64,000 nucleotides of DNA, taken from an uncultured Actinomycetota bacterium. Its GTDB lineage: Bacteria; Actinomycetota; Actinomycetes; Propionibacteriales; Nocardioidaceae. Positions 45,676 to 59,203 of this stretch are shown here, piece by piece. The stretch covers positions 11,387-75,386 of the forward strand of contig CAVVAE010000003.1 of NCBI GenBank assembly GCA_963746185.1, written 5' to 3'. Both the position numbers and the translations under genes were made by a program. The notes below the pieces were generated by a model, which did no database searches, had not been told where the DNA came from, and saw nothing but the letters and a program-made list of their open reading frames with translations. Position 1 is the first letter of the stretch, and each line of letters begins with the position of its first letter.

Positions 45676-46773
45676 CTAGGGCTTCCTCGATGTAGATGTT
45701 GATCCAAAGCGGAACTCGACCACGTCGCCGTCGGCCATCACGTAGTCCTTGCCCTCGATGCGCACCTTGCCGGCGGCCTTCGCGGCATTCATCGAACCGG
45801 CCGCCACCAAGTCGTCGTACGACACGATCTCCGCCTTGATGAAGCCACGTTGGAAGTCGGTGTGGATGACACCGGCGGCTTCGGGAGCGGTCGCACCCTG
45901 CTTGATGGTCCATGCCCGAGACTCCTTCGGACCAGCCGTGAGGTAAGTCTGCAAGCCAAGGGTGTCGAAACCGACACGGGCGAGTACGTCGAGCCCCGGC
46001 TCGTCGACGCCCATCTCCTCGAGCATCGCGCGAGCCTCGTCGTCATCGCCGAGCTCAACCAACTCAGCCTCGAACTTCGCGTCGAGGAAGATCGCCTCCG
46101 ACGGCGCGACGATCTCCCGCATGCGGGCCTTGAGCTCCTCGTCGCCCAGCTCGTCGGCGTCACAGTTGAACACGTAGATGAACGGCTTGGCCGTCATCAA
46201 CATCAGCTCGCGGACCAGTGTCTTGTCGATCGAGGTGGCGAGGATCGGCGTACCCGCTTCCAACGCGGACTTCACCTCGCGGACCGCCTCCAGCAGAACC
46301 GCGTTCTCTTTCTTGAGTCGCGCCTCTTTCTCCAACCGCGGCAACGCCTTCTCGACGGTCTGCAGGTCAGCGAGAATCAGCTCGGTCTGGATCGTGGAGA
46401 TGTCGTCGGCCGGATTGACCTTGCCCTCGACGTGCGTGACGTCGTCGTCCTCGAAGACCCGCGTCACCTGGCAGATCGCGTCGGACTCGCGGATGTGCGA
46501 CAGGAACTTGTTGCCCAGCCCCTCCCCCTCGGAAGCACCCCGAACGATGCCAGCGATGTCGACGAACTGGACCGTCGCGGGCAGCGTCTTGGCCGACTCG
46601 AAGAGCTTGGCGAGTACGCCGAGTCGCGCGTCTGGGACGCCGACCACGCCGATGTTGGGCTCGATCGTCGCGAACGGGTAGTTCGCCGCGAGCACATTGT
46701 TCTTGGTGAGCGCGTTGAAGAGGGTCGATTTGCCGGCGTTGGGGAGTCCGACGATTCCGATGGTGAGTGCCAC
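45676..46773 (-). CDS. ychF: Redox-regulated ribosome-binding ATPase YchF
   Basis: IGIVGLPNAGKSTLFNALT, NYPFATIEPN, DIAGIV.GAS.GEGLGNKFL and the C-terminal TGS block GVIHTDFQRGFIKAE. The GTG start at 46771-46773 gives 365 aa. The 655-aa ORF upstream extension is spurious. Confidence 0.95.
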   Translation of the reverse strand: MALTIGIVGLPNAGKSTLFNALTKNNVLAANYPFATIEPNIGVVGVPDARLGVLAKLFESAKTLPATVQFVDIAGIVRGASEGEGLGNKFLSHIRESDAICQVTRVFEDDDVTHVEGKVNPADDISTIQTELILADLQTVEKALPRLEKEARLKKENAVLLEAVREVKSALEAGTPILATSIDKTLVRELMLMTAKPFIYVFNCDADELGDEELKARMREIVAPSEAIFLDAKFEAELVELGDDDEARAMLEEMGVDEPGLDVLARVGFDTLGLQTYLTAGPKESRAWTIKQGATAPEAAGVIHTDFQRGFIKAEIVSYDDLVAAGSMNAAKAAGKVRIEGKDYVMADGDVVEFRFGSTSTSRKP

Positions 46774-46926
46774 GGGCGACAACAGTACGGCGAACGGGCC
46801 GCCACCCGGAAATCCAGCACCGAGCCGTCGACAGATGGCCGTACCTGCGCCCGGAGGGTTACACCCTGAGCTGGCAGGGTTCCGCAGTGTCTTGTGCGCT
46901 GCCCACCCCGCGTCTACCGTCGGAAC

Positions 46927-47331
46927 ATGGGGAACGGCCTCCTCGGTGCGTTCATCGCCATCGCCTTCGTCACGCTGATGCTCGGCGTGACAGTCGGTGG
47001 CGTGCTCTACCAGCACGAGATCGCGGCGTTCTTCCGGCGGTTCGCCGGCCGATTCTCGACGCCGCCTGAACCTCCAGCGGGTCTGCCCATTGAACGTATC
47101 GCCCGGGACGCCCGCCGCCTCAGGACCGAGCTGCTCGTCCCCGCTCCCGGAACCCCGATGGCCCGCCGGATAGCCGTGCAGCGGGCGTACGACGACCTGC
47201 TGGCTGACGCGTGCGAAGCGCTTGATGTCCCCGACACCCTGAGTGATCTTCCCCCGGGCACGGAGCGGGATGCCGAGCGGCTGCACGTGGAGCATGAGCT
47301 TGATGAGGCCGGCCTGCGCCTCACCGCGTGA
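46927..47331 (+). CDS. Hypothetical membrane-anchored protein
   Basis: N-terminal TM (LLGAFIAIAFVTLMLGVTVGGVL) followed by a charged helical region. Confidence 0.5.
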   Translation: MGNGLLGAFIAIAFVTLMLGVTVGGVLYQHEIAAFFRRFAGRFSTPPEPPAGLPIERIARDARRLRTELLVPAPGTPMARRIAVQRAYDDLLADACEALDVPDTLSDLPPGTERDAERLHVEHELDEAGLRLTA

Positions 47332-47362
47332 CCCGCGAAGAACGCAGGTCCTGAAGCTCCGG

Positions 47363-48256
47363 TCAGTTACGGGACTCGCATTGGAAGTCTCTGTCGCCCT
47401 CGCCCGAGTTGGCTGACACCTTGTCGCGGCCACTGCCGCACAGGAGGAAGTCCGCACCCGCATCGCCCCAGAGCTGGTCATCACCGTCGCCGGCCCAGAT
47501 CCGGTCTTCACCGCTTCCACCGTGCAGAGTGTCACGACCATCGACGGCGACGATGTCGTCGTTGCCCGCACCGCTGTGCACGAGGTCGTTGCCAATCCCG
47601 GACCTGATCCAGTCGTTGCCGCCGCCGCCCCAGACAACGTCACGACTGGAGAAGCCGTTGAAGAAGTCGGGACCCGCCCCGAAGCGGGCGACGTCGTGGC
47701 CCTTGTCGCCCAACACGGTCACGGCGAATGTGGCGGGCAGGGAAGAGGCGTCGGTGTAGTCGTTGCCGAGCCTCGGCCAGATCTCGACCAGCATCGGCCG
47801 GTTAACGGTTCTGCCTTCGCGTAGCCGACAGATAGCAGCGACGCCCACCCGCACCTTCTGCCGGTGGCAGGCGCGCGTCAGCTTCCTGAACGATTCTGTG
47901 CCGGTGTCGGCGAAGCGGAGCCGGCCGTCCACGAGAGTGACCACGAGGTGGCTGTTCTGCTGGCCGCTTTGGTAGCGATATCCGTGCTCGGTCTTGATGA
48001 GCCAGCCCTTGTCCTTCAGGCCGACGCCGACGCTGCCGGCACCCTTCAGCTCCGTCTCGAACTTGTACGGAGGCCCGGCATTGGTACCGGGGGGCGGGTT
48101 GTTCGTGCCATCAGCAGTTCCGACGCTCACGGCAGACATCACCGCTGCAACGAAAAATACAAGGGCCGAGACTACGGTGCGACGAAGCAAAACATCCTCC
48201 TGGAGTCGGCCCCTCGACTGCCGGGCGGCAAGGGTGGCCAGCAACGGTCTCGACAC
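47363..48256 (-). CDS. Secreted calcium-binding protein with hemolysin-type (RTX) nonapeptide repeats
   Basis: Signal-like VVSALVFFVAAVMSAVSVGTA. The C-terminus has seven GGxGxDxUx-like repeats (GGGGNDWIR, SGIGNDLVH, SGAGNDDIV, GGSGEDRIW, AGDGDDQLW, GDAGADFLL, CGSGRDKVS). Confidence 0.8.
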   Translation of the reverse strand: MSRPLLATLAARQSRGRLQEDVLLRRTVVSALVFFVAAVMSAVSVGTADGTNNPPPGTNAGPPYKFETELKGAGSVGVGLKDKGWLIKTEHGYRYQSGQQNSHLVVTLVDGRLRFADTGTESFRKLTRACHRQKVRVGVAAICRLREGRTVNRPMLVEIWPRLGNDYTDASSLPATFAVTVLGDKGHDVARFGAGPDFFNGFSSRDVVWGGGGNDWIRSGIGNDLVHSGAGNDDIVAVDGRDTLHGGSGEDRIWAGDGDDQLWGDAGADFLLCGSGRDKVSANSGEGDRDFQCESRN

Positions 48257-48377: not shown

Positions 48378-49316
48378 TCAGGGCGCAGGTTCGAGCTCCG
48401 GGAAGGTCCAGGTGCCGTCGAGGATCTCGGGGCGTGGCCGGTACATGCGGATGGCGTAGTTCCATCCCTCTTGCAGTGGTAGCGGGTTCGGGTCGCTGTC
48501 GCCGCCGCCGAGGGTGACAGTGATGGAGCCGTCGGGATTCCTGGTTCCGGAGACGCTGTTGACGCTGTAGGCATCCAGGTCGTTCTTGTGGAGGAAGCCA
48601 TCCGCGCCGTAGACGGTGATGGACCAGAACGCGTCGACGGGGACGTCCTTGACCGTGATGGTGTACCGGCCGATCGGGAGGTGCGGCTCGACGCTGGCGT
48701 AGAACGCCTCACGCTCGGGCAGGCCGCCCCATCCGCTAGCGGTGCCGACCTGGTGCCGGTGCGGGTCAACCTCCTCCTTGGTCCCGAACATGCCGTGGGT
48801 ATCCAAGCCCTGTGCCGATTCAGCCAGCAGACCCTGGCGGATCGCGGTGAAGGACTCCTCGTCGTAGTCCGGCAGATCCAGCGGCTCGCTGGACACGGCG
48901 GTCAGTGAGAAGCCGTCTTGAATGACATGCACTAGCGCGACGTCATCGGGGTCGGTCGCGTCGACCAGGATCCGGGCGGCCAAGAGAACGTAGGGGGTGT
49001 CGAACTCCTCCATGGTCAGCGTGTAGTCACCTGGCTCGGTGAAGATTCGGTTGATGTAGTGGTCCTGGTTGACCACCATCACCGTCAGATACCGGCCTCC
49101 AGCGTCCGGGACCGTCACCGTCGCGGGCATGGAGATGTTGACCACGGCGACGCTGTACAGAGTGTCTCTGTTCGACCGGATCACGGTCTGGTTGTCGATC
49201 GACACAGGTTCCCGGTTGTGCTGCCACCGGTTCACCCCGCCCGCCTGCGCCTGGATCCCCACCAGCATCCGGTTCGTCTCGGCCCGCACGAAGTTGTCGC
49301 TCGTAACAGTGATCAT
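48378..49316 (-). CDS. DUF1254/DUF1214 two-domain protein
   Basis: DNFVRAETNRM..., VIRSNRDTLYSVAVVNI, PDAGGRYLTVMVVNQDHY, then the FWSITVY block typical of DUF1214 (from memory). Confidence 0.72.
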   Translation of the reverse strand: MITVTSDNFVRAETNRMLVGIQAQAGGVNRWQHNREPVSIDNQTVIRSNRDTLYSVAVVNISMPATVTVPDAGGRYLTVMVVNQDHYINRIFTEPGDYTLTMEEFDTPYVLLAARILVDATDPDDVALVHVIQDGFSLTAVSSEPLDLPDYDEESFTAIRQGLLAESAQGLDTHGMFGTKEEVDPHRHQVGTASGWGGLPEREAFYASVEPHLPIGRYTITVKDVPVDAFWSITVYGADGFLHKNDLDAYSVNSVSGTRNPDGSITVTLGGGDSDPNPLPLQEGWNYAIRMYRPRPEILDGTWTFPELEPAP

Positions 49317-49400
49317 GAGTGGCTGCCTCCCGGCGTTCGCAGAAACGTACTCGGCTCGCATCGTATCCAGGCTCGAAGCGCAGCCTCGGCCAAGGAGCCC

Positions 49401-49961: not shown

Positions 49962-50137
49962 CGCGCCAGGGGTCGTGAATCCAGACCCACACCGGTACGT
50001 ACATCAGCAATCCAGCTCTCGGGCTCAGAATCCCTTACCCACAAGGGAAAACAGAGAAAACTGACGGCCCGACGGGAGAATGGAATCCCGCCGAGCCGCC
50101 AGCCCCACCACTTAGGCGGGCCTCACGGAGAGCGCAC

Positions 50138-53100
50138 TCATCTCGGCGACTGGGCGAACCCGACCGCGTTGAGGAAGAGCCGCTCGCCCGACGTCGTCCA
50201 GCCCATGTCGGGGCCGACAGCGCCAGTGACCGCCATCGATGCGAGCAGCACCTCGACATCGTTGTGGGTGACCCATCTGAACGTGGCGCCGTTGCCGACG
50301 CTCGATCCTCCGTTGTTCAAGGTCACGCGCTGAGTCGCAAGCCGCGGACCCTTGTAGGACTCGATCGTGGAGTAGTAGCTGCCCTCAGTCAGGATCGTCG
50401 CCGGGTTGGAGATGCCCGCGAACAGCGCGTGCCGCCGGTCCTGCTCGGTCAGCCGCACCGAGCCATCGCCGTACCCGTCGCTCCCGACCTTGACTCGATC
50501 GGTGAACTTCTCCAGCAGCCGGATGCCACCTTCGCTGCCCCACGTGCCGGTCCAGACCACGCCGGTATGGCTGGCGCGGGTGGCTGCTTCGAGAGAGTTG
50601 AACTCCGCCTGAGACACGGTGCCGCCGCCGCTCCCGTTGACCACCACGGCGTCGTACGCCGACAGGTCCATCTTGGTCGACCATGGCACCTTGCCGGCAG
50701 CGACGTCGTGCTCCCGAAGGAAGTCGACGACCTGTCCGTCGACGTCACCCACAACACCGACGTCGATCGACGTCAGTTCGACGTTGTGTGTCGTCTCCGG
50801 GCCGACGTAGTCGATCGTCGACTCGTCGGTCAGGTAGCCCTCAGCTGCCACCGCGATGGTGTACTCGCCGTCGAGCAGACCAGACTGCGAGTAGTGACCA
50901 CCCGCGTCAGTCATGGTGCGGAAGCCCTCGACACCTGAGCCGATCACCGTCGCCCCTTCGACTGGCTGCCCCCCGTCATCGACAACCGTGCCGCTCAGCA
51001 CGCCGCGCGCCAGTGGCTCGAGCGCGATGTCGGCCGTCACCTGTTCGGAGTCGGTCACGGTGACCTGCTGACTCGAGGGTTGGTAGCCCGTCGCTTCCAC
51101 CGTGACCGTGTAGGTGCCGTCGGGTACGCCGATGGCGTAGCCGCCTGCTTCATCCGTGACGTCAGACGCACCCAGCTCGGTGATTCTCACGTCAGCGCCG
51201 ACCACGGGATCGCCGCCCGACGTCACAGTGCCGTTGATCTCACCCCGGGTTGCAGTCGCGGCAAACGACACCGCATTGAGGTAGATCCTTTCGGCTGCGG
51301 CAGTCCACTCATCGCCGGGACGACCGTAGGTGCCGGCCGTGAGGCTTCCGAGCAGCACCTCGACGCTGTCGGTGGAGGTGTAGGCAACGCCCACCCCGCC
51401 TCCGAGCTTGCTGCCATCAGCGTCGTTGTGCAGGTCGGCAATCGTGGTACCGCTGTAACCACCGAAGGTGAGGTATTGCTGGTTGCCACCCTCTGGATCG
51501 TTGATGATCGTCACCGGCTCGCCCGCGTCGAAGCCGGCGAAGATCGGGTGTCCACTGACGGGGACATAAGAAACCGGACTCGGTACGAAGTCATAGTCGA
51601 CCGATGCCGGGTCGCCTCTGAGGTCATGGAGACTTCCGATTGCGTCGCCGCCCCACTGGCCGCCGAACAGCACGGATACGCCGTTGTCGGCCGCCGCGTT
51701 GAGCGTCGCGTTGAACTCGCCAAGGAAGGCGGAGCTGACCCCACGGTTGAAGACCACCACGTCGTACTCGTCGATCTGCTCCCGCAGCGTTGACAGCTCG
51801 GTGGGGGTGTAGTCGGTCACGGTGTAGCCGTCAGTCGCGAGCAGGCCTCGAACGCTGCCGAGGTAGTCACCGACGAGTGCCACCGGCACCGAGGGATCGA
51901 GCTCGAGATCAGCCGTCGCGGCTTCTCCCGCCACGATCGTGACCGGCACGCGGCCTGTCTGTAGCCCAGTCGCCGATGCGGAAACCCGGTAGTCCCCGGC
52001 AGGCACACCCTCGATCAGGAACGAGCCGTCGGCGGACGTGGTCGCCGCGAAGGCAGTTCCGTCGACCCGTACCGTCGCGCCCGAGACCGGAGCCGCGGAC
52101 TCGTCGGTCACGGTGCCCGAGACGTCGCCCGCAGGCAGTAGCGCAAGCGCGATGTCGCGACTCACCGACTCGCCGACTCCGACGGTCACTGAGACCTCGG
52201 ACGACGCATGGTTGGTCGCCTCCCCACGCAAGGTCCAGGTCCCGGCCGGAAGTCCGACGACATAGTCGCCATCTGCCGCGACGTCGTAGCGGCGGCCGGT
52301 CTCGACCACCGTCACGGTGCCGGCGACTGGCCCGGCCGCGCTGGTCAGCGCACCCTCGACCTGTCCACCTGCGGGCGGCGCATCGAGTGCGTAGCGGACG
52401 GCGTTGCGCAACAGCAGTTCAGCCTGCGGACTCCAGGCGTCGCCGACAACGTCGTCGTAGCCAGCGAAGCCGTACGTCGACATCGACAGCGTGCCGAGGA
52501 GCACGTCGACGCCTGCAGCGCCACGCGGCCGCTCACCGACGAGCCCGCCTCCGTCGAGCACGTCCGACGACACGGTCGCGAGAGTGTCGCCACTGAAGCC
52601 GTCGAACCATGAGTACTCCGAGCCGTCGTCGATCAGCTTGAACGTCGACGGAAGCCCAGCCATGATCGGGTGATCTGAGTCCTCGACCTGGACCGTGACG
52701 GCTCCGTCGGAGCGGTCCTCGTTGTTGCCAGTTGGGTCGCCGGTGTAGTCGGTCAGGTAGCGGAACGAGCCGCGCCCGAACTGGTCGAGCCACACCACCG
52801 AGATGCCGGCACGAAGCGCCGCCGAGTCAAAGGCCTGCAACCCTGCCCTGCCGGGGTCGAAGCCCGCGTTGTTCGCGTTGTTCGCAATGACGAGGTCCAG
52901 GTCAGCGATCGCTGCTGTGTCGGACCAGCTCAACGCCTGCGGCGTGTAGCCCCAGTGCGTCAGCCAGGCGGCGACCTTGCCCTGGTAGTCGTCAATCACG
53001 CCGACGCGTGCGGTGACTCGAAGGTTGACGTCGTACGACGTGGGAGCCCCAGCCGTCACGTTGACCGCGTCACGATCGCGTAGATAACCATCGTGGGTGA

Positions 53101-56100
53101 CATCGACCTGGTAGTTACTCGGCTCGACCCGAGGCAGCACGTAGGAGCCGTCGGACGCCGTCGTAGCCAGCCTCGGTGCACCAAGCAGGCGCACGGTGAC
53201 ACCGGCGACCGGCTGACCGTCAGACGTCACGACTCCGCTGAGGCTTCCATCGTCGGCCTTCGGGGTCAGTGCGACATCGGACGTGACTGCACCACCGTCG
53301 TCGATCGACACCTCGCGGGTCGTCTCGTCATAGCCGAAGCCTGCGTAACGAATGGTGTAGTCGCCTGGGGGCAGGCTGAGCGTGTAACTGCCGTCTGCCG
53401 CCGTAGGTGTGCGCTGCTCCGTGCCGTCGACCGACACAGTGCCACTGACTGGGGCACCCGCCTCGTCTGACACCGTGCCGGAGACCGAGCCCAGTGCTGG
53501 ATCGGCTGCGAAGAGCACCGAGTTGGCGTAGAGCCTGCGACCCTGCGCCGTCCAGTCCTCTGACGCTTTCAGCAAGATGTCCGATGTCATGCCGCCGAGG
53601 AGCAGATGGATGCTCGACGGCGTACGTGGTTGATACGTGATGCCGACACCATGGGAGCCGCCGAGCTCGGAGACCACATCGGCGACCGGGAAGCCGGTGT
53701 AGCCAGGGATGGCCGTCGAGTAGTTGTTGGCGGTGAGCACTGGCGGGTTGGCGGGGAGACCGTCGAAGATGGGATGGGACGCATCAGCTGCAGAGAAGCT
53801 GACCTCGCCCTCGTCGTCGAACTGCGCCCGTGGCTGGGACGGGTTGCCGTTGAACTGCCGGAGCAACCGCACTCCCCCGTCACTGGAGAAGTAGCCGTCA
53901 CCGAAAACGCCGCTGACGCCGTTGGCGTCCATCGCCGACTGCCAGCTGGCGAACTGCGCCACTGTCGGCGTAGTCGGGTCGTTGAACACCACCACGTCGA
54001 GGTCGGGGATGCGCGCCGTGGATGTCCACGTCAACTGTTCAGTCGTGAGGCCCCTGACCTGGAGCACGGTCGCGATCGTGTTCTGGTAGTCGCCCATGAT
54101 GCCGACGTGCGGCGCTGTATCAAGGGTGACATCGGCCGTAATTGTCTGGCCTCCGACGATGGTGACGTCCTGGCTGTAGGGCAGGAAGCCGGTGGCCGCG
54201 ACACTCAACGTGTAGTCCTCGGCAGGTAGGCCGCTGACTGTGTAGGTGCCGTCGGACGCCGTGGTGGCGTTGAACGTCGTCCCGTCGATCGTGACGGTTG
54301 CACCCGCCACCGGTTCGCCGTCCCCATCGCTCACTGTGCCGGTCACCGAGCCGAGCTCAGCCGGCGTCATCGTGACGTCGACGGTTTGCGTCTCGCCTCC
54401 CGTCACGGTGACGTCGCGCTCAACAGCGGCCGCTCCGGTCGCGCGGAATCGCAACGTGTAGGTGCCGGGGTCGAGGACCAGCTTGTAGCTGCCGTCGGAC
54501 GCAGTACTGGTGTGATAGCCGGTGCCGACGGCGGTGACGGTGGCCGCCGCCGGAGCGCCACCTTCGCCAGTCACGGTGCCGTGTACGACACCGTAGTCGG
54601 CATCGATCGCGTAGTCGACCGCGTTACCGATGAGCTGTTCGGTGATGGGAAGCCACTCAACGTCCGGCCGGCCCCAAGGGGCAGCCGCGAACGATGACAA
54701 CAGCACATGCACGCTGTCGGTCGAGCGCGGTTTGTAGGCGATGCCGGACCCGACCTCGCCCTTACCGTCCGTATGCAGGCTGGCCAGATTGACTCCGGAG
54801 TAGCCGTTGAACGCTGCCCACTCATTGTTCGCCGCCAGCACCGGTACGCGGCTGCCCACGGTCAACCCTTCGGTGAGTGGGTGCTCCTGGCCGGCGATCA
54901 GGGAGACTCGGCCGCTGCCCGTGGAGTCGGTAACGACACTCGCTGGGTCACCGGTCTGGTCGGAGAGGTTGAGGATGCTGCCGTAGCCGATGCTCCACTG
55001 ATCGAGCCAGATCACGCTGGTCCCAGCCGCGTCGGTGGCGTCGATGAACGGCTGGATCACTCCGGCCGCGGGTCGGTCCTCGGCCCCATTGGCGAGCACC
55101 ACGTCGTAGTAGTCGGGGTGCGCGGTGACTTCGGCGTACGACGTCGTGTCAGCCGGGTAGCCGAGGTCTTCGAGAACTCCGACCATGCGGCCCTGGTAGT
55201 CACCCATGACTGCGACCTGATAGCGGTCGAGCGTCACGGGCTGGTCAGTGGTCTGACCCGCCGTGACCGAGACTTCGGTGGTGTAAGGAACGAAGGCGTC
55301 CTTGTCGACGCGGAGCTGGTAACTTCCGGCCGCGATGGTTGCGAACGAGAAGGTGCCGTTCGCAGCTGTGGTGGCTGGGTCGAGCGGCGTACCTTCGAGC
55401 ACTACCTCGGCACCTTCGATGGGATTGCCGTCGCCATCGAGCACGGTGCCAGTGACGGAACCGGTGCCAACGGGCGTGAGGGCGAAGTCGGCCGACGTGA
55501 TTTGCCCGGCCGCGATCGTCACCTGCTGGCTCTCGTCAGAGAACCCGTAGGCGCTGGCCTGCAGCTGGTAACTGCCCGGTCGGTGGTCGAGCTGGTAGTC
55601 CCCAGTTGCGGGGTCCGTGGTCGTCAACGCACCTGTGTCGGTGATCGTGACGGTGGCGTCGAGAGGTCCGTCCGGACCCGTGACCGTGCCGGTAACTCCG
55701 CCCGTGGTGCGGTAGGCGTAGAGCATGCCGCTGGTGTCGCCGGTGACAAACGTGCCGTCGTCGTACGCACCGCTGCTCGTGACATTGGCGTCGACGTCGT
55801 CGACCCACACGCGCTTGCCGGTCACCGCGTCGAGCGCAAAGAGCACACTGTCGATCTGTGAGCCACCGATGACGTAGCCATCTCCGGTCGTCATCAACGA
55901 GGACGAGACCGGGCCAGTGTCCTGGTGGCGCCAGGCCACCGTGCCGGTGATCCGGTCATAGGCCACGACAGCGCCGTTGGCGTGCGTGCCGCTGATGACC
56001 AAGTCGCCGTAGATGGCTGGGCTGCTGCCTTGCGCGTCGCCATGCGTGCTGTTCTGCCACGCGATGGTGCCGTCGTCGGCGTTGACTGCGAGGAACGTGC

Positions 56101-59017
56101 CGTCCCAGGCCGCATCACTGGTCGTGGTGACGTAAACGAGCCCATCGGAAACGGTCGGGGCGCTGTAGAACGTGTCGTCGTCACGTTGGAGGGTCCAGGC
56201 GACTTCGCCGGTGGAGGTGTCGAGTGCCACGAGACGGCCCTCGTCAGCGCTGGTGACGTAGAGCTGGCCGCCGTCGACGGCCGGGCCGTTGAAGATTCCG
56301 GCAGCGACTGGTGTGCTCCACAAGACCTCGCCGGTCATCAGGTCGATCGCGTAGACCGAGTCGGCGACTTCCGAGGGTCCGGTGTTGGCGTAGACGACGC
56401 CGTCCACCACAGCGGGCTGGGTGTACACGGCCAGCTGGCCCGGAGTCGCGACGTGCCACAGCACGTCGCCCGTGGCGGCGTCGAGAGCGGTGAACCCGCC
56501 GGCCAGACCACCGCCGATGACCACGACTCCGTCAGAGACTGCTGGGCTGCCTCGAAGCTGGTCACCGACGTCGTAGCGCCACATGAGTTCGCCCGTGTCG
56601 AGGTTTCGTGCCTGCAGCTCGCCCGAGATCGTGCCGACATAGACGATGCCGTCGGCGATGACTGGCGAGGCGAAGGTGATGCCGGTGCCGGTGTCGACCG
56701 ACCACTCACGCCGGAGCGTGTCGGGGGCCACGGCCTTGCTCGTGTATCCGCTGTGCGCACTGTTGTTCTGGTACTGCGTCCAGCCATTGTCGGTGGCGCT
56801 GGCGAGTGGTGCGAGGGTCGGGTTCAGCATCTTGGTCTTCGGGATCGACACCGTCGAAGACCAGGGCTTGAAGCCGGTGGCTCGTACTCGTACGACGTAC
56901 TCGCCAGCAGGGATGCTCGTCGAGAACTTGCCGTTGCTGCCGGTGAAGACGGGGTCGACACCAGAACCGTCGAAGCTCACCTCTGCACCGGCGACTTGGC
57001 CGGCGGGCCCGGGCGCCGACCTCACGGTGCCGGAAACGGCGTGGTTCTTTGCGGACTTGAGGTCGATTGTCCGCGTCAAGGCTGAACCGGGCGTGATCTT
57101 GACCGGAACGTTGGCGGTCTGAAAACCAGGTGCTGTCACGCGGATGGTCTGGTTGCCTGCGGGGACCGTGAGCTGGAACTGGCCGGCGTCGTTGCTGGTG
57201 GTGTTCCATCTGGTGCCGGAAACGACGAGCTTGGCGCCGGCAACCGGCCCGGCTTTGCTTGTCACGGTGCCGCTCACGGTGCCGGAGTTGATGGCCTTGG
57301 TAACAGCGGCGTACGCGTCGACGATGCCGTTGCCGTAGTCGTTGTCGGGCAGGCTGCTGCCCATGTGCGACTCCTGCCGGGCGGTGCTGGTCAGCATCGT
57401 CTCGACGTCGTCCACGGTGAGGTTGGGGTTGGCGGCCAGGAGCAGCGCAGCCACTCCGGACACGTGCGGCGTTGCCATCGACGTACCGCTCAGTTCGACG
57501 TACTCGCCTTCGCCGAGCGACGTCGGGAACGACGAGTAGATGTGGTGCCCGGGGGCGGCGATTTCTGGCTTGGTGTAGTCGACGCCCTCCCAGCTGACGG
57601 GTCCGCGGCTGGAGAATCCTGCGACGACATCGTTGAAGTCCGTGGCACCGACCGCAAAGGAGTTCGGGAAGCTGCCTGGCGAACCGACGGTTGTAGGACC
57701 AGGTCCGTCGTTGCCATTGGCGAAGATCGGCACGATGCCAGCCGCCCTCCACGCTTCAACGTCGCCCCAGTACTGCGTGTTGTAGGTGTCTGCTGAGCCC
57801 CAGGAGTTGCTCACGAGGTCGGGCGCCGCGGTGGGGTCGCCACCTGGCGCGAGCATCCACTCGAAACCGCGGTGGATGCCGCTGGTGCTGGCGCCGCCGC
57901 CGTCGCTGAAGATCTTGGCGGCGATCCAGGTGGCCTTCGGCGCGACGCCGACGACCTCGCCGGGGGCGCCGCCGACAATGCTGCCGGCGACGTGGGTGCC
58001 GTGCCCGAAGCCATCGCCCGGGGCCGGGTAGTCCTCTGACGTAGCGACGAACCAGCTCTTCTCGAGGTCACCGGTGTTGCCGCGCCACGAGCCGGCGAGC
58101 GCGGGGTGGCTACCGTCGACGCCGCTGTCCATGATGCCGACGACGGTGCCTTGACCACGGTCATCGAACTCGCTCCACACCTGCGGAGCATGCACGCGCT
58201 CCAGTCCCCAGGTAGGCAGCTTGGGTCCGCCCTCGAGAGGCTCGGGGGTGGGCTCCTGGATCATGCCGTCGACGGTGACACTGGCGACGTCGGGGTGACG
58301 GGTGAGCCGGTTCAGCGCTTCGCTGTCGACGGTTGCGGAGAAGCCGTTGAAGATCCAGTACGGCTGGACTTTGGTCGCATGTCCGTCTGTGCGAAGTTGC
58401 TGGAACAGCGACGCCACTGAGGATCGTTCGTCACCGGCGAAGGATCGGAGTGCGTCGACGACAAGTGTGGACTTGGCATCTTGGCCGGCATCGGCGACGC
58501 GACGGTTCTCGGTCGCCTGCGAGAGGTCGCGGCTGTTGAGCTGCGTACGCCGCGTCAGTGCCGCGTCGAGTGCAGCCGCATCGGCGTCAGTCGCGAGCGC
58601 AGTCATATCGACCTGCTCACGAAGCCGGACGATGACCGCCACGTCGTCGCCGTCCGCTGCCTCACGAGTGACCTTGGGGGCGACGCCGGTGTCGGGCAGC
58701 AACACCGACTCGACGGCATCGTCATCTGCGTCGGTGCGGGCGGAATCGATCGACGTGACCGGAAGTCCGTCGGTGATGTCGGTGGCGCGGCCGTAGTCGG
58801 CCTTGGTCTTCGCGGCGGGACGCGAAGGCGCTGCGGTCGCCGCAGCGGTGGTGTCCGAGGTCGAGGCAGCGGCCTCGATTGCCGCTCCGAGCGAGGATGC
58901 TGGCTGTGCCGACGACGGCTGGTTGGACGCGTGCGCCGGCGAGCCGGGCAACAGCGTGACGGTGAGAAGAGCGGACGCGAGAGCAGGCAGCAAACGGCTG
59001 CCAAGGCGTGCGGACAA
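50138..59017 (-). CDS. Giant secreted subtilisin-like serine protease (S8), 2,959 aa, multidomain
   Basis: TTG start with a G-rich SD. Sec signal MSARLGSRLLPALASALLTVTLLPGSPAHA. I9-like propeptide (aa 124-255). Catalytic triad motifs GIMDSGVD (D297), GHGTHVAG (H339) and SGTSMATPHVSG (S513). Twelve CarboxypepD_reg-like domains, a PQQ-like propeller, and five alpha/beta modules of about 205 aa. Confidence 0.95.
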   Translation of the reverse strand: MSARLGSRLLPALASALLTVTLLPGSPAHASNQPSSAQPASSLGAAIEAAASTSDTTAAATAAPSRPAAKTKADYGRATDITDGLPVTSIDSARTDADDDAVESVLLPDTGVAPKVTREAADGDDVAVIVRLREQVDMTALATDADAAALDAALTRRTQLNSRDLSQATENRRVADAGQDAKSTLVVDALRSFAGDERSSVASLFQQLRTDGHATKVQPYWIFNGFSATVDSEALNRLTRHPDVASVTVDGMIQEPTPEPLEGGPKLPTWGLERVHAPQVWSEFDDRGQGTVVGIMDSGVDGSHPALAGSWRGNTGDLEKSWFVATSEDYPAPGDGFGHGTHVAGSIVGGAPGEVVGVAPKATWIAAKIFSDGGGASTSGIHRGFEWMLAPGGDPTAAPDLVSNSWGSADTYNTQYWGDVEAWRAAGIVPIFANGNDGPGPTTVGSPGSFPNSFAVGATDFNDVVAGFSSRGPVSWEGVDYTKPEIAAPGHHIYSSFPTSLGEGEYVELSGTSMATPHVSGVAALLLAANPNLTVDDVETMLTSTARQESHMGSSLPDNDYGNGIVDAYAAVTKAINSGTVSGTVTSKAGPVAGAKLVVSGTRWNTTSNDAGQFQLTVPAGNQTIRVTAPGFQTANVPVKITPGSALTRTIDLKSAKNHAVSGTVRSAPGPAGQVAGAEVSFDGSGVDPVFTGSNGKFSTSIPAGEYVVRVRATGFKPWSSTVSIPKTKMLNPTLAPLASATDNGWTQYQNNSAHSGYTSKAVAPDTLRREWSVDTGTGITFASPVIADGIVYVGTISGELQARNLDTGELMWRYDVGDQLRGSPAVSDGVVVIGGGLAGGFTALDAATGDVLWHVATPGQLAVYTQPAVVDGVVYANTGPSEVADSVYAIDLMTGEVLWSTPVAAGIFNGPAVDGGQLYVTSADEGRLVALDTSTGEVAWTLQRDDDTFYSAPTVSDGLVYVTTTSDAAWDGTFLAVNADDGTIAWQNSTHGDAQGSSPAIYGDLVISGTHANGAVVAYDRITGTVAWRHQDTGPVSSSLMTTGDGYVIGGSQIDSVLFALDAVTGKRVWVDDVDANVTSSGAYDDGTFVTGDTSGMLYAYRTTGGVTGTVTGPDGPLDATVTITDTGALTTTDPATGDYQLDHRPGSYQLQASAYGFSDESQQVTIAAGQITSADFALTPVGTGSVTGTVLDGDGNPIEGAEVVLEGTPLDPATTAANGTFSFATIAAGSYQLRVDKDAFVPYTTEVSVTAGQTTDQPVTLDRYQVAVMGDYQGRMVGVLEDLGYPADTTSYAEVTAHPDYYDVVLANGAEDRPAAGVIQPFIDATDAAGTSVIWLDQWSIGYGSILNLSDQTGDPASVVTDSTGSGRVSLIAGQEHPLTEGLTVGSRVPVLAANNEWAAFNGYSGVNLASLHTDGKGEVGSGIAYKPRSTDSVHVLLSSFAAAPWGRPDVEWLPITEQLIGNAVDYAIDADYGVVHGTVTGEGGAPAAATVTAVGTGYHTSTASDGSYKLVLDPGTYTLRFRATGAAAVERDVTVTGGETQTVDVTMTPAELGSVTGTVSDGDGEPVAGATVTIDGTTFNATTASDGTYTVSGLPAEDYTLSVAATGFLPYSQDVTIVGGQTITADVTLDTAPHVGIMGDYQNTIATVLQVRGLTTEQLTWTSTARIPDLDVVVFNDPTTPTVAQFASWQSAMDANGVSGVFGDGYFSSDGGVRLLRQFNGNPSQPRAQFDDEGEVSFSAADASHPIFDGLPANPPVLTANNYSTAIPGYTGFPVADVVSELGGSHGVGITYQPRTPSSIHLLLGGMTSDILLKASEDWTAQGRRLYANSVLFAADPALGSVSGTVSDEAGAPVSGTVSVDGTEQRTPTAADGSYTLSLPPGDYTIRYAGFGYDETTREVSIDDGGAVTSDVALTPKADDGSLSGVVTSDGQPVAGVTVRLLGAPRLATTASDGSYVLPRVEPSNYQVDVTHDGYLRDRDAVNVTAGAPTSYDVNLRVTARVGVIDDYQGKVAAWLTHWGYTPQALSWSDTAAIADLDLVIANNANNAGFDPGRAGLQAFDSAALRAGISVVWLDQFGRGSFRYLTDYTGDPTGNNEDRSDGAVTVQVEDSDHPIMAGLPSTFKLIDDGSEYSWFDGFSGDTLATVSSDVLDGGGLVGERPRGAAGVDVLLGTLSMSTYGFAGYDDVVGDAWSPQAELLLRNAVRYALDAPPAGGQVEGALTSAAGPVAGTVTVVETGRRYDVAADGDYVVGLPAGTWTLRGEATNHASSEVSVTVGVGESVSRDIALALLPAGDVSGTVTDESAAPVSGATVRVDGTAFAATTSADGSFLIEGVPAGDYRVSASATGLQTGRVPVTIVAGEAATADLELDPSVPVALVGDYLGSVRGLLATDGYTVTDYTPTELSTLREQIDEYDVVVFNRGVSSAFLGEFNATLNAAADNGVSVLFGGQWGGDAIGSLHDLRGDPASVDYDFVPSPVSYVPVSGHPIFAGFDAGEPVTIINDPEGGNQQYLTFGGYSGTTIADLHNDADGSKLGGGVGVAYTSTDSVEVLLGSLTAGTYGRPGDEWTAAAERIYLNAVSFAATATRGEINGTVTSGGDPVVGADVRITELGASDVTDEAGGYAIGVPDGTYTVTVEATGYQPSSQQVTVTDSEQVTADIALEPLARGVLSGTVVDDGGQPVEGATVIGSGVEGFRTMTDAGGHYSQSGLLDGEYTIAVAAEGYLTDESTIDYVGPETTHNVELTSIDVGVVGDVDGQVVDFLREHDVAAGKVPWSTKMDLSAYDAVVVNGSGGGTVSQAEFNSLEAATRASHTGVVWTGTWGSEGGIRLLEKFTDRVKVGSDGYGDGSVRLTEQDRRHALFAGISNPATILTEGSYYSTIESYKGPRLATQRVTLNNGGSSVGNGATFRWVTHNDVEVLLASMAVTGAVGPDMGWTTSGERLFLNAVGFAQSPR
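50147..55699 (-). repeat. Five tandem protein-level supermodules (about 365-370 aa each) inside the giant protease gene
   Basis: Each is [CarboxypepD_reg-like x2]+[alpha/beta module of about 205 aa]. Coordinates: 54599-55699, 53504-54589, 52379-53491, 51257-52366, 50147-51244. Landmarks recurring in every copy: GSVTGTV/GVLSGTV starts, V-G/A-V-x-G/D-D-Y, YDVVV.N, HP(I/L)..G(L/F), V.(V/L)LL, NAV.(Y/F)A. Confidence 0.85.
55709..56785 (-). other. PQQ-like/BamB-like beta-propeller domain of the giant protease (aa 745-1103, approximate)
   Basis: Repeated blades of the form SPVIADGIVYVGT..GELQARNLDTGELMWRY, SPAVSDGVVVIGG...FTALDAATGDVLWH, QPAVVDGVVYAN...VYAIDLMTGEVLWS, GPAVDGGQLYVTS..GRLVALDTSTGEVAWT, and so on. 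Confidence 0.75.
57308..58165 (-). other. Peptidase S8 catalytic domain of the giant protease (aa 285-570, approximate)
   Basis: The D297 codon is 58127-58129, H339 is 58001-58003, and S513 is 57479-57481 (checked against the nucleotide sequence). Confidence 0.9.
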
Positions 59018-59203
59018 GGGATCCCCCCAGGGTGCGTGAAAGGTGTGCGTGCCTTGTGACGCGGCTCACAGTAGTGACCCTTAGTGAGTGTGGCAATACC
59101 CAGCGTCGGGCAACATCGTCCAGGACGCCCCATTTCTGGTCGTTCCCACCAGTGCCCAGCTCGTCGTGCCGTCACAGCGAGTTACAACGAGCGGTGCGTG
59201 AGC

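Follow-up and report, generated by a model that had tools for sequence, protein, structure and literature searches.

The DNA analysed here (hereafter the window) is a stretch of 64,000 nucleotides from contig CAVVAE010000003.1 of an uncultured Actinomycetota bacterium (assembly GCA_963746185.1). It contains a giant gene, located at positions 50138–59017 of the minus strand, whose product is predicted to be an exported protease bearing five consecutive copies of a large tri-domain unit (the supermodules). The gene is 8.9 kb long and comprises 2959 codons from a TTG start, without any internal stop; it is thus open throughout, as stated in a first-pass annotation made from the sequence alone, and encodes a protein of about 310 kDa. 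A Shine-Dalgarno-like sequence read from the DNA, CTGGGGGGAT (59021–59030, minus strand), lies 3 nucleotides upstream of the start codon at 59017, and GGGGGGAT is read in front of that TTG codon. At the other end, a terminator-like hairpin with a T-rich tail is found 33 nucleotides past the stop codon (50058–50105, minus strand), although this is a consensus match only and 0.5 chance matches are expected in the region.

The N-terminal third of the protein is that of a subtilase (all coordinates below refer to the minus strand). A predicted Sec signal peptide (amino acids 1–30, ...LLPGSPAHA/S; 58928–59017), judged by eye, precedes an Inhibitor_I9-like propeptide (amino acids 200–251; 58265–58420; 22.4 bits for a Pfam cut-off of 21.2) and a Peptidase_S8 catalytic domain (amino acids 288–564; 57326–58156), which scores 185.9 bits for a gathering cut-off of 21.8. 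The triad motifs of the latter are intact: DSGVD at position 297, HGTHVAG at 339 and GTSMATPH at 511, so that D297, H339 and S513, assigned from the canonical motifs (DSG, HGTH, GTSMA), are presumably the catalytic residues. Both the Pfam score and the Asp–His–Ser motifs place the domain in the Peptidase S8 (subtilase) family. It is directly followed by a pair of CarboxypepD_reg beta-sandwiches (amino acids 577–727; 56837–57289), which are homologous to those of the supermodules, and then by a PQQ_2/BamB-like beta-propeller (amino acids 745–1100; 55718–56785) recognized by Pfam, NCBIfam and local hidden Markov models (HMMs). Along the whole protein, CarboxypepD_reg (PF13620) exceeds its gathering score, with 515 bits over 12 stretches. 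Using the local HMMs, the architecture is written N-S8-cc-P-(cc-A)x5, with the letter c for each sandwich, P for the propeller and A for each alpha/beta module. The polypeptide stops at ...GFAQSPR, two residues beyond the fifth supermodule, and neither an LPXTG motif nor a hydrophobic tail was found at this C-terminus. From these features, we infer that the gene product is an exported subtilisin-family (S8) protease, either secreted or wall-attached.

The remainder of the protein (amino acids 1107–2957) consists of the supermodules. The first-pass annotation had divided this region into five units of 362–371 residues, each made of two sandwiches followed by an alpha/beta module. Both the division and the inner order hold: the five units are all in frame, start at amino acids 1107, 1477, 1843, 2218 and 2592, and are each composed of two CarboxypepD_reg (transthyretin-like) sandwiches and an alpha/beta module of about 205 residues. 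Supermodule 1 (amino acids 1107–1473; 54599–55699) has its sandwiches at 55226–55705 and its alpha/beta module at 54599–55225; supermodule 2 (amino acids 1477–1838; 53504–54589) has them at 54119–54598 and 53504–54115, respectively; supermodule 3 (amino acids 1843–2213; 52379–53491) at 53018–53494 and 52379–53014; supermodule 4 (amino acids 2218–2587; 51257–52366) at 51893–52366 and 51257–51892; and supermodule 5 (amino acids 2592–2957; 50147–51244) at 50771–51250 and 50147–50770. Successive units are connected by linkers of only 3–4 residues (DYG, DPAL, PPAG and TATR).

The five-unit repeat is real, periodic and far beyond chance. When 150-residue windows were compared with the whole protein, the blast offsets clustered at about 370, 740, 1115 and 1485 residues, which bears out the proposed periodicity. 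The units had been described as homologous but well diverged. Indeed, blastp aligns each of the ten pairs over its full length, with 30–38% identity and E-values ranging from 1.65e-28 to 2.3e-58, and in a MAFFT alignment of 393 columns units 2–5 share 30–36% identity with unit 1. The alpha/beta parts taken alone are still recognizably related (pairwise E-values of 1.2e-12 to 3e-31, i.e. 51–100 bits, the best of 100 shuffles reaching 22 bits). At the nucleotide level, the longest exact run shared between units is 11–16 nucleotides and identity is 45–51%, in keeping with the earlier remark that long identical runs are few. Tandem Repeats Finder, whose longest searchable period is 500 nucleotides, gave no array whose period would correspond to the unit length.

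Relatives of the protein were collected in two ways. In an exhaustive HMMER search, a profile of the five alpha/beta modules was run against 1.84 billion representative proteins and retrieved 236 of them at E ≤ 0.001, including 167 at E ≤ 1e-10; a word-indexed homologue search with module alignments gave two fragments from one alignment and none from the alignment of 76 modules. Domain strings were established for the best 150 of the 236 proteins and reveal two main forms: S8-cc-A proteases of about 1200–1800 residues with one or two modules, and the N-S8-cc-P-(cc-A)x5 form, present in nine full-length database proteins that are 32–66% identical to the window protein. The single-copy S8-cc-A proteases are the commonest architecture among the listed matches; they are abundant in Thermoproteota and also occur in bacteria. 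Orthologous loci were obtained by scanning one genome per GTDB species with an alignment of four close orthologues as the query, which yielded 22 loci (the genome scan with a single-protein query found no relatives). The number of units, whose comparison among relatives had been suggested as a check, is exactly five in all 15 complete bacterial loci and in 9 of 9 full-length database proteins. The complete loci belong to two Actinomycetota metagenome-assembled genomes (MAGs), five Jiangella species, a Jiangellaceae MAG, Hamadaea, three Micromonospora, Phytoactinopolyspora halophila, a Limnocylindrales MAG and a Virgibacillus sp.; unit lengths across orthologues are 362–385 residues. Uncultured Actinomycetota MAGs harbor the nearest relatives of the window gene (59–60% identity). 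The patchy distribution suggests that the whole 9-kb gene may have been transferred horizontally. Over the five-unit region, identity to the window protein is 46% for the Limnocylindrales MAG (Chloroflexota), 40–41% for the Micromonospora proteins (L008, L018 and L019) and 32% for that of Virgibacillus. The public names of the family members are all generic: 'subtilisin family serine protease', 'carboxypeptidase regulatory-like domain-containing protein' or 'BamB' (WP_327609520.1, WP_412965961.1).

The archaeal relatives deserve a few remarks of their own. Three loci from Desulfurococcaceae MAGs (L020:8522-13483, L021 and L022) display a different form, S8-ccc-A-c-A, and many S8 proteases of Thermoproteota of about 1650 residues (proteins P0168–P0270) combine this form with a further tail of about 350 residues. 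Several Thermoproteota relatives have coiled-coil-type Pfam matches (PF04513, PF07889 and PF04108). STABLE, the S-layer-bound protease of Staphylothermus marinus (PMC5744192), comes from the same organism family as these MAGs. STABLE might carry the module: the many relatives from Desulfurococcales include no protein named STABLE.

The comparison of the orthologues bears on the age of the repeat. In 66 of 70 comparisons, a unit of the window protein finds its best match in the unit with the same number in the other protein. A neighbour-joining tree of 75 alpha/beta modules sorts them by position into five pure clades (15 of 15 modules each), with module identities of 35–41% within the same position and 25–29% between different positions. 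When 114 further modules were included, a single clade took in all the modules of the five-unit proteins as well as those from truncated contigs and left out the S8-cc-A modules, and the proteins with apparently three or four units were placed as contig fragments of the five-unit family. Because the positional clades are pure and the family is monophyletic with respect to its single-copy relatives, a single amplification must predate the divergence of all five-unit proteins. Judging from these trees and alignments, one cc-A unit was amplified internally, once, in their common ancestor, and the number, order and length (362–385 residues) of the copies have stayed fixed since. Between units, synonymous sites are saturated (synonymous divergence, dS, greater than 1) and nucleotide identity is about 49%.

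The repeat could alternatively result from a recent expansion by slippage or recombination, or from an assembly artefact. This explanation, to which we assign practically no weight, is refuted: nothing was found in its favour, and it is contradicted by the low nucleotide identity and short shared runs reported above, by the saturation of synonymous sites, by the purity of the positional clades and by the presence of the same five units in independent assemblies from several phyla. The first-pass annotation, which had argued against a slippage or an artefact and for an old amplification kept in frame by selection, is therefore supported on both counts, the second also by the architecture common to the orthologues, by the position-specific conserved residues of the units and by the selection data that follow.

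The ratio of nonsynonymous to synonymous divergence (dN/dS) between units, also suggested earlier, was computed but is uninformative given the saturation of dS; orthologues were therefore compared instead. In pairs of Jiangella orthologues (dS of 0.2–0.5), every unit has a dN/dS of 0.17–0.41; the corresponding values are 0.22–0.33 for a pair of Actinomycetota MAGs and 0.36–0.65 for Micromonospora pairs. Purifying selection acts on each of the five units, and no unit is in decay. The domains differ in this respect: in the Jiangella pairs, dN/dS is 0.09–0.20 for S8, 0.17–0.21 for the propeller, 0.12–0.33 for the alpha/beta modules and about 0.37–0.40 for the sandwiches. The alpha/beta domains are thus more constrained than the neighbouring sandwiches.

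By sequence, the alpha/beta module stands apart from known families, as no match to Pfam, NCBIfam or PDB sequences reaches threshold. For four of the five modules of the window, Pfam gives nothing meaningful even at E ≤ 10; that of unit 5, one of these four, has chance-level matches only (E-values of 0.13 and 0.19). The module of unit 3 gives a sub-threshold match to ThuA (PF06283; 21.2 bits for a threshold of 33.4), and a Pfam scan of 76 diverse family modules detected ThuA in one and DUF4350 in two (best E-value 4.3e-6); in terms of sequence, the modules do not belong to the ThuA family. DUF4350, which we take to be another family related to the class I glutamine amidotransferases (GATase1), is presumably a hint at the place of the module in that clan. 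When a profile of the 76 modules was compared with the PDB, the ThuA-like protein 1t0b came first, albeit with an E-value of only 0.019 and an alignment that rests on an HPIxxG motif and a C-terminal NAVxWA helix motif.

The AlphaFold2 model of the unit 3 module, built on the 76-module alignment, has a mean predicted local distance difference test score (pLDDT) of 93.3 and a predicted template modelling score (pTM) of 0.92. Foldseek retrieved 53 PDB matches for this model at E ≤ 0.001, and those listed are all GATase1-like or ThuA-like folds: the top match is again 1t0b (E-value 2.1e-8, TM-score 0.65), followed by 2a9v, 4pxy, 4e5v and the uncharacterised STM3548 (2gk3) and STM1381, with the true class I amidotransferases ranking after the ThuA-like proteins, STM3548 and STM1381. 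According to the model, the fold of the module is ThuA-like/class I glutamine-amidotransferase-like, at the superfamily level. We accordingly consider that the module represents a new sequence family with a known fold.

The module is probably non-catalytic, as judged from residue conservation in 30 orthologues. In none of the five positions is a Cys or a Ser kept at the site of the amidotransferase nucleophile elbow, after the central strand (the site was mapped from sequence and secondary structure, not from model coordinates), so that the modules lack the conserved Cys nucleophile that, along with His and Glu partners, characterizes catalytic class I amidotransferases and PfpI-type hydrolases. 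Besides, 24–37 columns per unit position are kept in at least 90% of the orthologues, and a single one of them, a Gly, is common to all five positions, which argues against a common catalytic site. Each unit position has thus evolved its own set of conserved residues.

Unit 2 was modelled over its full length (362 residues, 30-sequence alignment) as a single body, with a pLDDT of 94.8 and a pTM of 0.79, which suggests that its three domains hold a defined arrangement. Foldseek found no PDB chain spanning the tri-domain unit, the best whole-query TM-score (0.43) being that of 1t0b, which covers the alpha/beta part only. The unit sandwiches match the transthyretin-like domain of carboxypeptidase D (5aq0), pilins, SlaB, SdrD and SpyCEP.

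The reading that we favour, with moderate confidence, is that the supermodules form a fixed-length, fairly stiff stalk or scaffold offering five non-equivalent docking surfaces. The supermodules, which are specialised by position, would be non-catalytic, the short linkers and the confidently modelled tri-domain unit suggest that the stalk is fairly stiff and of fixed length, and the scaffold would determine how far the head formed by the protease and the propeller stands from the cell surface, while the alpha/beta domains would dock wall polymers, substrates or partner proteins. The grading of dN/dS by domain fits with sandwiches acting as spacers and alpha/beta domains as functional surfaces. 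The geometry of a stalk also fits the C-termini of some Firmicutes-type orthologues: in two low-G+C five-unit proteins (P0017 and P0018), the C-terminal 574 and 801 residues consist of Big_6/Glucodextran_B immunoglobulin-like domains, then three CWB2 domains that bind the cell wall, a wall anchor located at the opposite end from the protease head. Other orthologues have an extra 100–270 residues of Big_6/Glucodextran_B domains at the C-terminus. Several observations weigh against this reading, however. No C-terminal anchor is present in the window protein or in its nearest relatives (P0003, L001 and L002), which end 2–6 residues past unit 5; as a result, a stalk rising from the wall is uncertain for the window copy, which would either be released or be retained through a module of its own. 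A unit dN/dS of about 0.3 denotes moderate constraint only, the pTM of 0.79 covers one unit and is compatible with both elongated and compact five-unit shapes, and literature searches (ThuA-like plus subtilase; ThuA function) gave no description of the protein family. Finally, most modules keep the HP-motif His and an Asp that follows strand 1, two residues also present in 1t0b, which may leave room for a small-molecule or metal site, or even for catalysis.

The same Asp and His lend some support to the idea that the alpha/beta modules are enzymes (ThuA-like sugar-modifying enzymes or GATase1/PfpI-like amidohydrolases), in which case the protein would be a chain of several enzymes, with at least six active sites in all; the superfamily is rich in hydrolases and amidotransferases, and the tighter constraint on the modules compared with the sandwiches would be accounted for as well. 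We nevertheless regard this as improbable given the lack of a Cys or Ser at the nucleophile elbow, the single column common to the five positions and the failure of any module to reach the ThuA gathering score, not to mention that the PDB descriptions of the ThuA-like structures assign no chemistry that could be transferred. Just as improbable, in our opinion, is a bolder proposal in which the ThuA-like domains constitute a new extracellular class, ligand-binding or cryptically catalytic, and the protein a single-chain scaffold with five stations, each with a distinct partner or substrate, working in a cellulosome-like or gated manner instead of as a passive spacer. The supermodules might also serve chiefly to target the protease to insoluble polymers of the environment (glycans; plant, fungal or bacterial walls) in the manner of carbohydrate-binding modules, the repeats providing avidity and not length. 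ThuA and DUF4350 fold families occur in carbohydrate and envelope contexts; in addition, the protein has a predicted signal peptide, the window copy lacks a wall anchor and the hosts of the orthologues are soil and rhizosphere actinomycetes and bacilli, all of which can be counted for such a role. Yet repeats that provide avidity are usually alike and variable in number, whereas the copies found here are position-specialised and their count is invariant, and Pfam detected no known carbohydrate-binding family; we thus hold this possibility to be somewhat unlikely. The non-catalytic stalk or scaffold remains the reading that we prefer.

The genes around the giant gene are functionally unrelated to it (DUF1214/DUF1254, an RTX-repeat open reading frame (ORF), YchF, a cyclase and RmuC). 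In the orthologous loci, no flanking gene is conserved across genera, or beyond the genus Jiangella. Given these unrelated neighbours and the absence of a flanking gene conserved across genera, the giant gene appears to stand alone. Two ORFs lie just downstream on the same strand (47363–48256 and 48378–49361, minus strand): one encodes RTX calcium-binding nonapeptide repeats, the other DUF1254 plus DUF1214, and neither is kept beside the orthologues. In another ORF (45676–47643, minus strand; 655 residues), YchF (the GTPase and the YchF C-terminal domain) corresponds to the last ~365 residues only; the long N-terminal part is probably artefactual, since reading frames tend to stay open in high-G+C DNA. 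The organism has a G+C content of 66%; across the window it is uniform (64–69%), and the giant gene does not lie in a compositional island. No tRNA or tmRNA gene was found across the 64 kb.

Altogether, the protein is a large decorated exported subtilase that combines an unclassified domain family with an unusually stable array of five supermodules, and it does not represent a new type of system. The work is of use for domain classification: it defines an unclassified ThuA-like/GATase1-like module that an exhaustive search traced to just 236 of 1.84 billion representative clusters and that, among the listed matches, is nearly always placed by the longer proteins behind sandwiches in exported S8 proteases, in bacteria as well as in archaea. 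The family is also experimentally tractable. Its function is testable, as each of the five modules can be produced on its own and some hosts are in culture (Jiangella, Micromonospora and Virgibacillus).

Among known systems, the Gram-positive cell-envelope S8 proteinases (lactocepin PrtP, SpyCEP and the C5a peptidase ScpA) are alike in having an N-terminal subtilase head, a long run of beta-sandwiches and, in some orthologues of the window protein, a wall anchor; these proteinases are displayed on a long multi-domain arm, as the window protease would be. The unit sandwiches even match SpyCEP chains (7edd, 5xyr and 6vjb) in Foldseek searches. By contrast with these proteinases, the stalk described here is made of five tri-domain supermodules with a ThuA-like domain, together with a beta-propeller, and the anchor, where present, is of the CWB2 type. 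As judged from Pfam and from the C-terminus, the window protein has no PA insertion, no Fn3-type domains and no LPXTG motif, and thus does not belong to the PrtP/SpyCEP/ScpA type. Among solved structures, Tk-SP from Thermococcus kodakarensis (3afg), a subtilase with a C-terminal beta-jelly-roll, gives the best sequence match to the S8 domain and the sandwich next to it (E-value 1.6e-36 over amino acids 274–662); Tk-SP, however, ends after one sandwich, whereas the window protein runs for another 2300 residues.

For the alpha/beta module, the closest folds are the ThuA-like proteins (PF06283; 1t0b, 4pxy and 4e5v), STM3548 (2gk3) and DUF4350, with the HPIxxG and NAVxWA motifs in common. The sequence similarity lies under every curated threshold; moreover, the solved ThuA-like proteins are single-chain entries of about 240–280 residues, whereas the module is here always located behind sandwiches in exported S8 proteases. 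The single-copy S8-cc-A proteases share the S8 head, the sandwiches and the alpha/beta module family with the window protein, but have one or two modules, which fall outside the five-unit clade, no propeller and other tails. Finally, 'periscope' surface proteins (SasG, Rib-domain proteins) also have stalk-like extracellular tandem domains, encoded by near-identical DNA repeats whose number varies between strains. The window protein is not one of them: its repeats share only 45–51% nucleotide identity and come in a fixed number, five. Unlike the repeats of typical surface proteins, the supermodules form an ancient array, fixed in number, whose copies are positionally orthologous and individually specialised.

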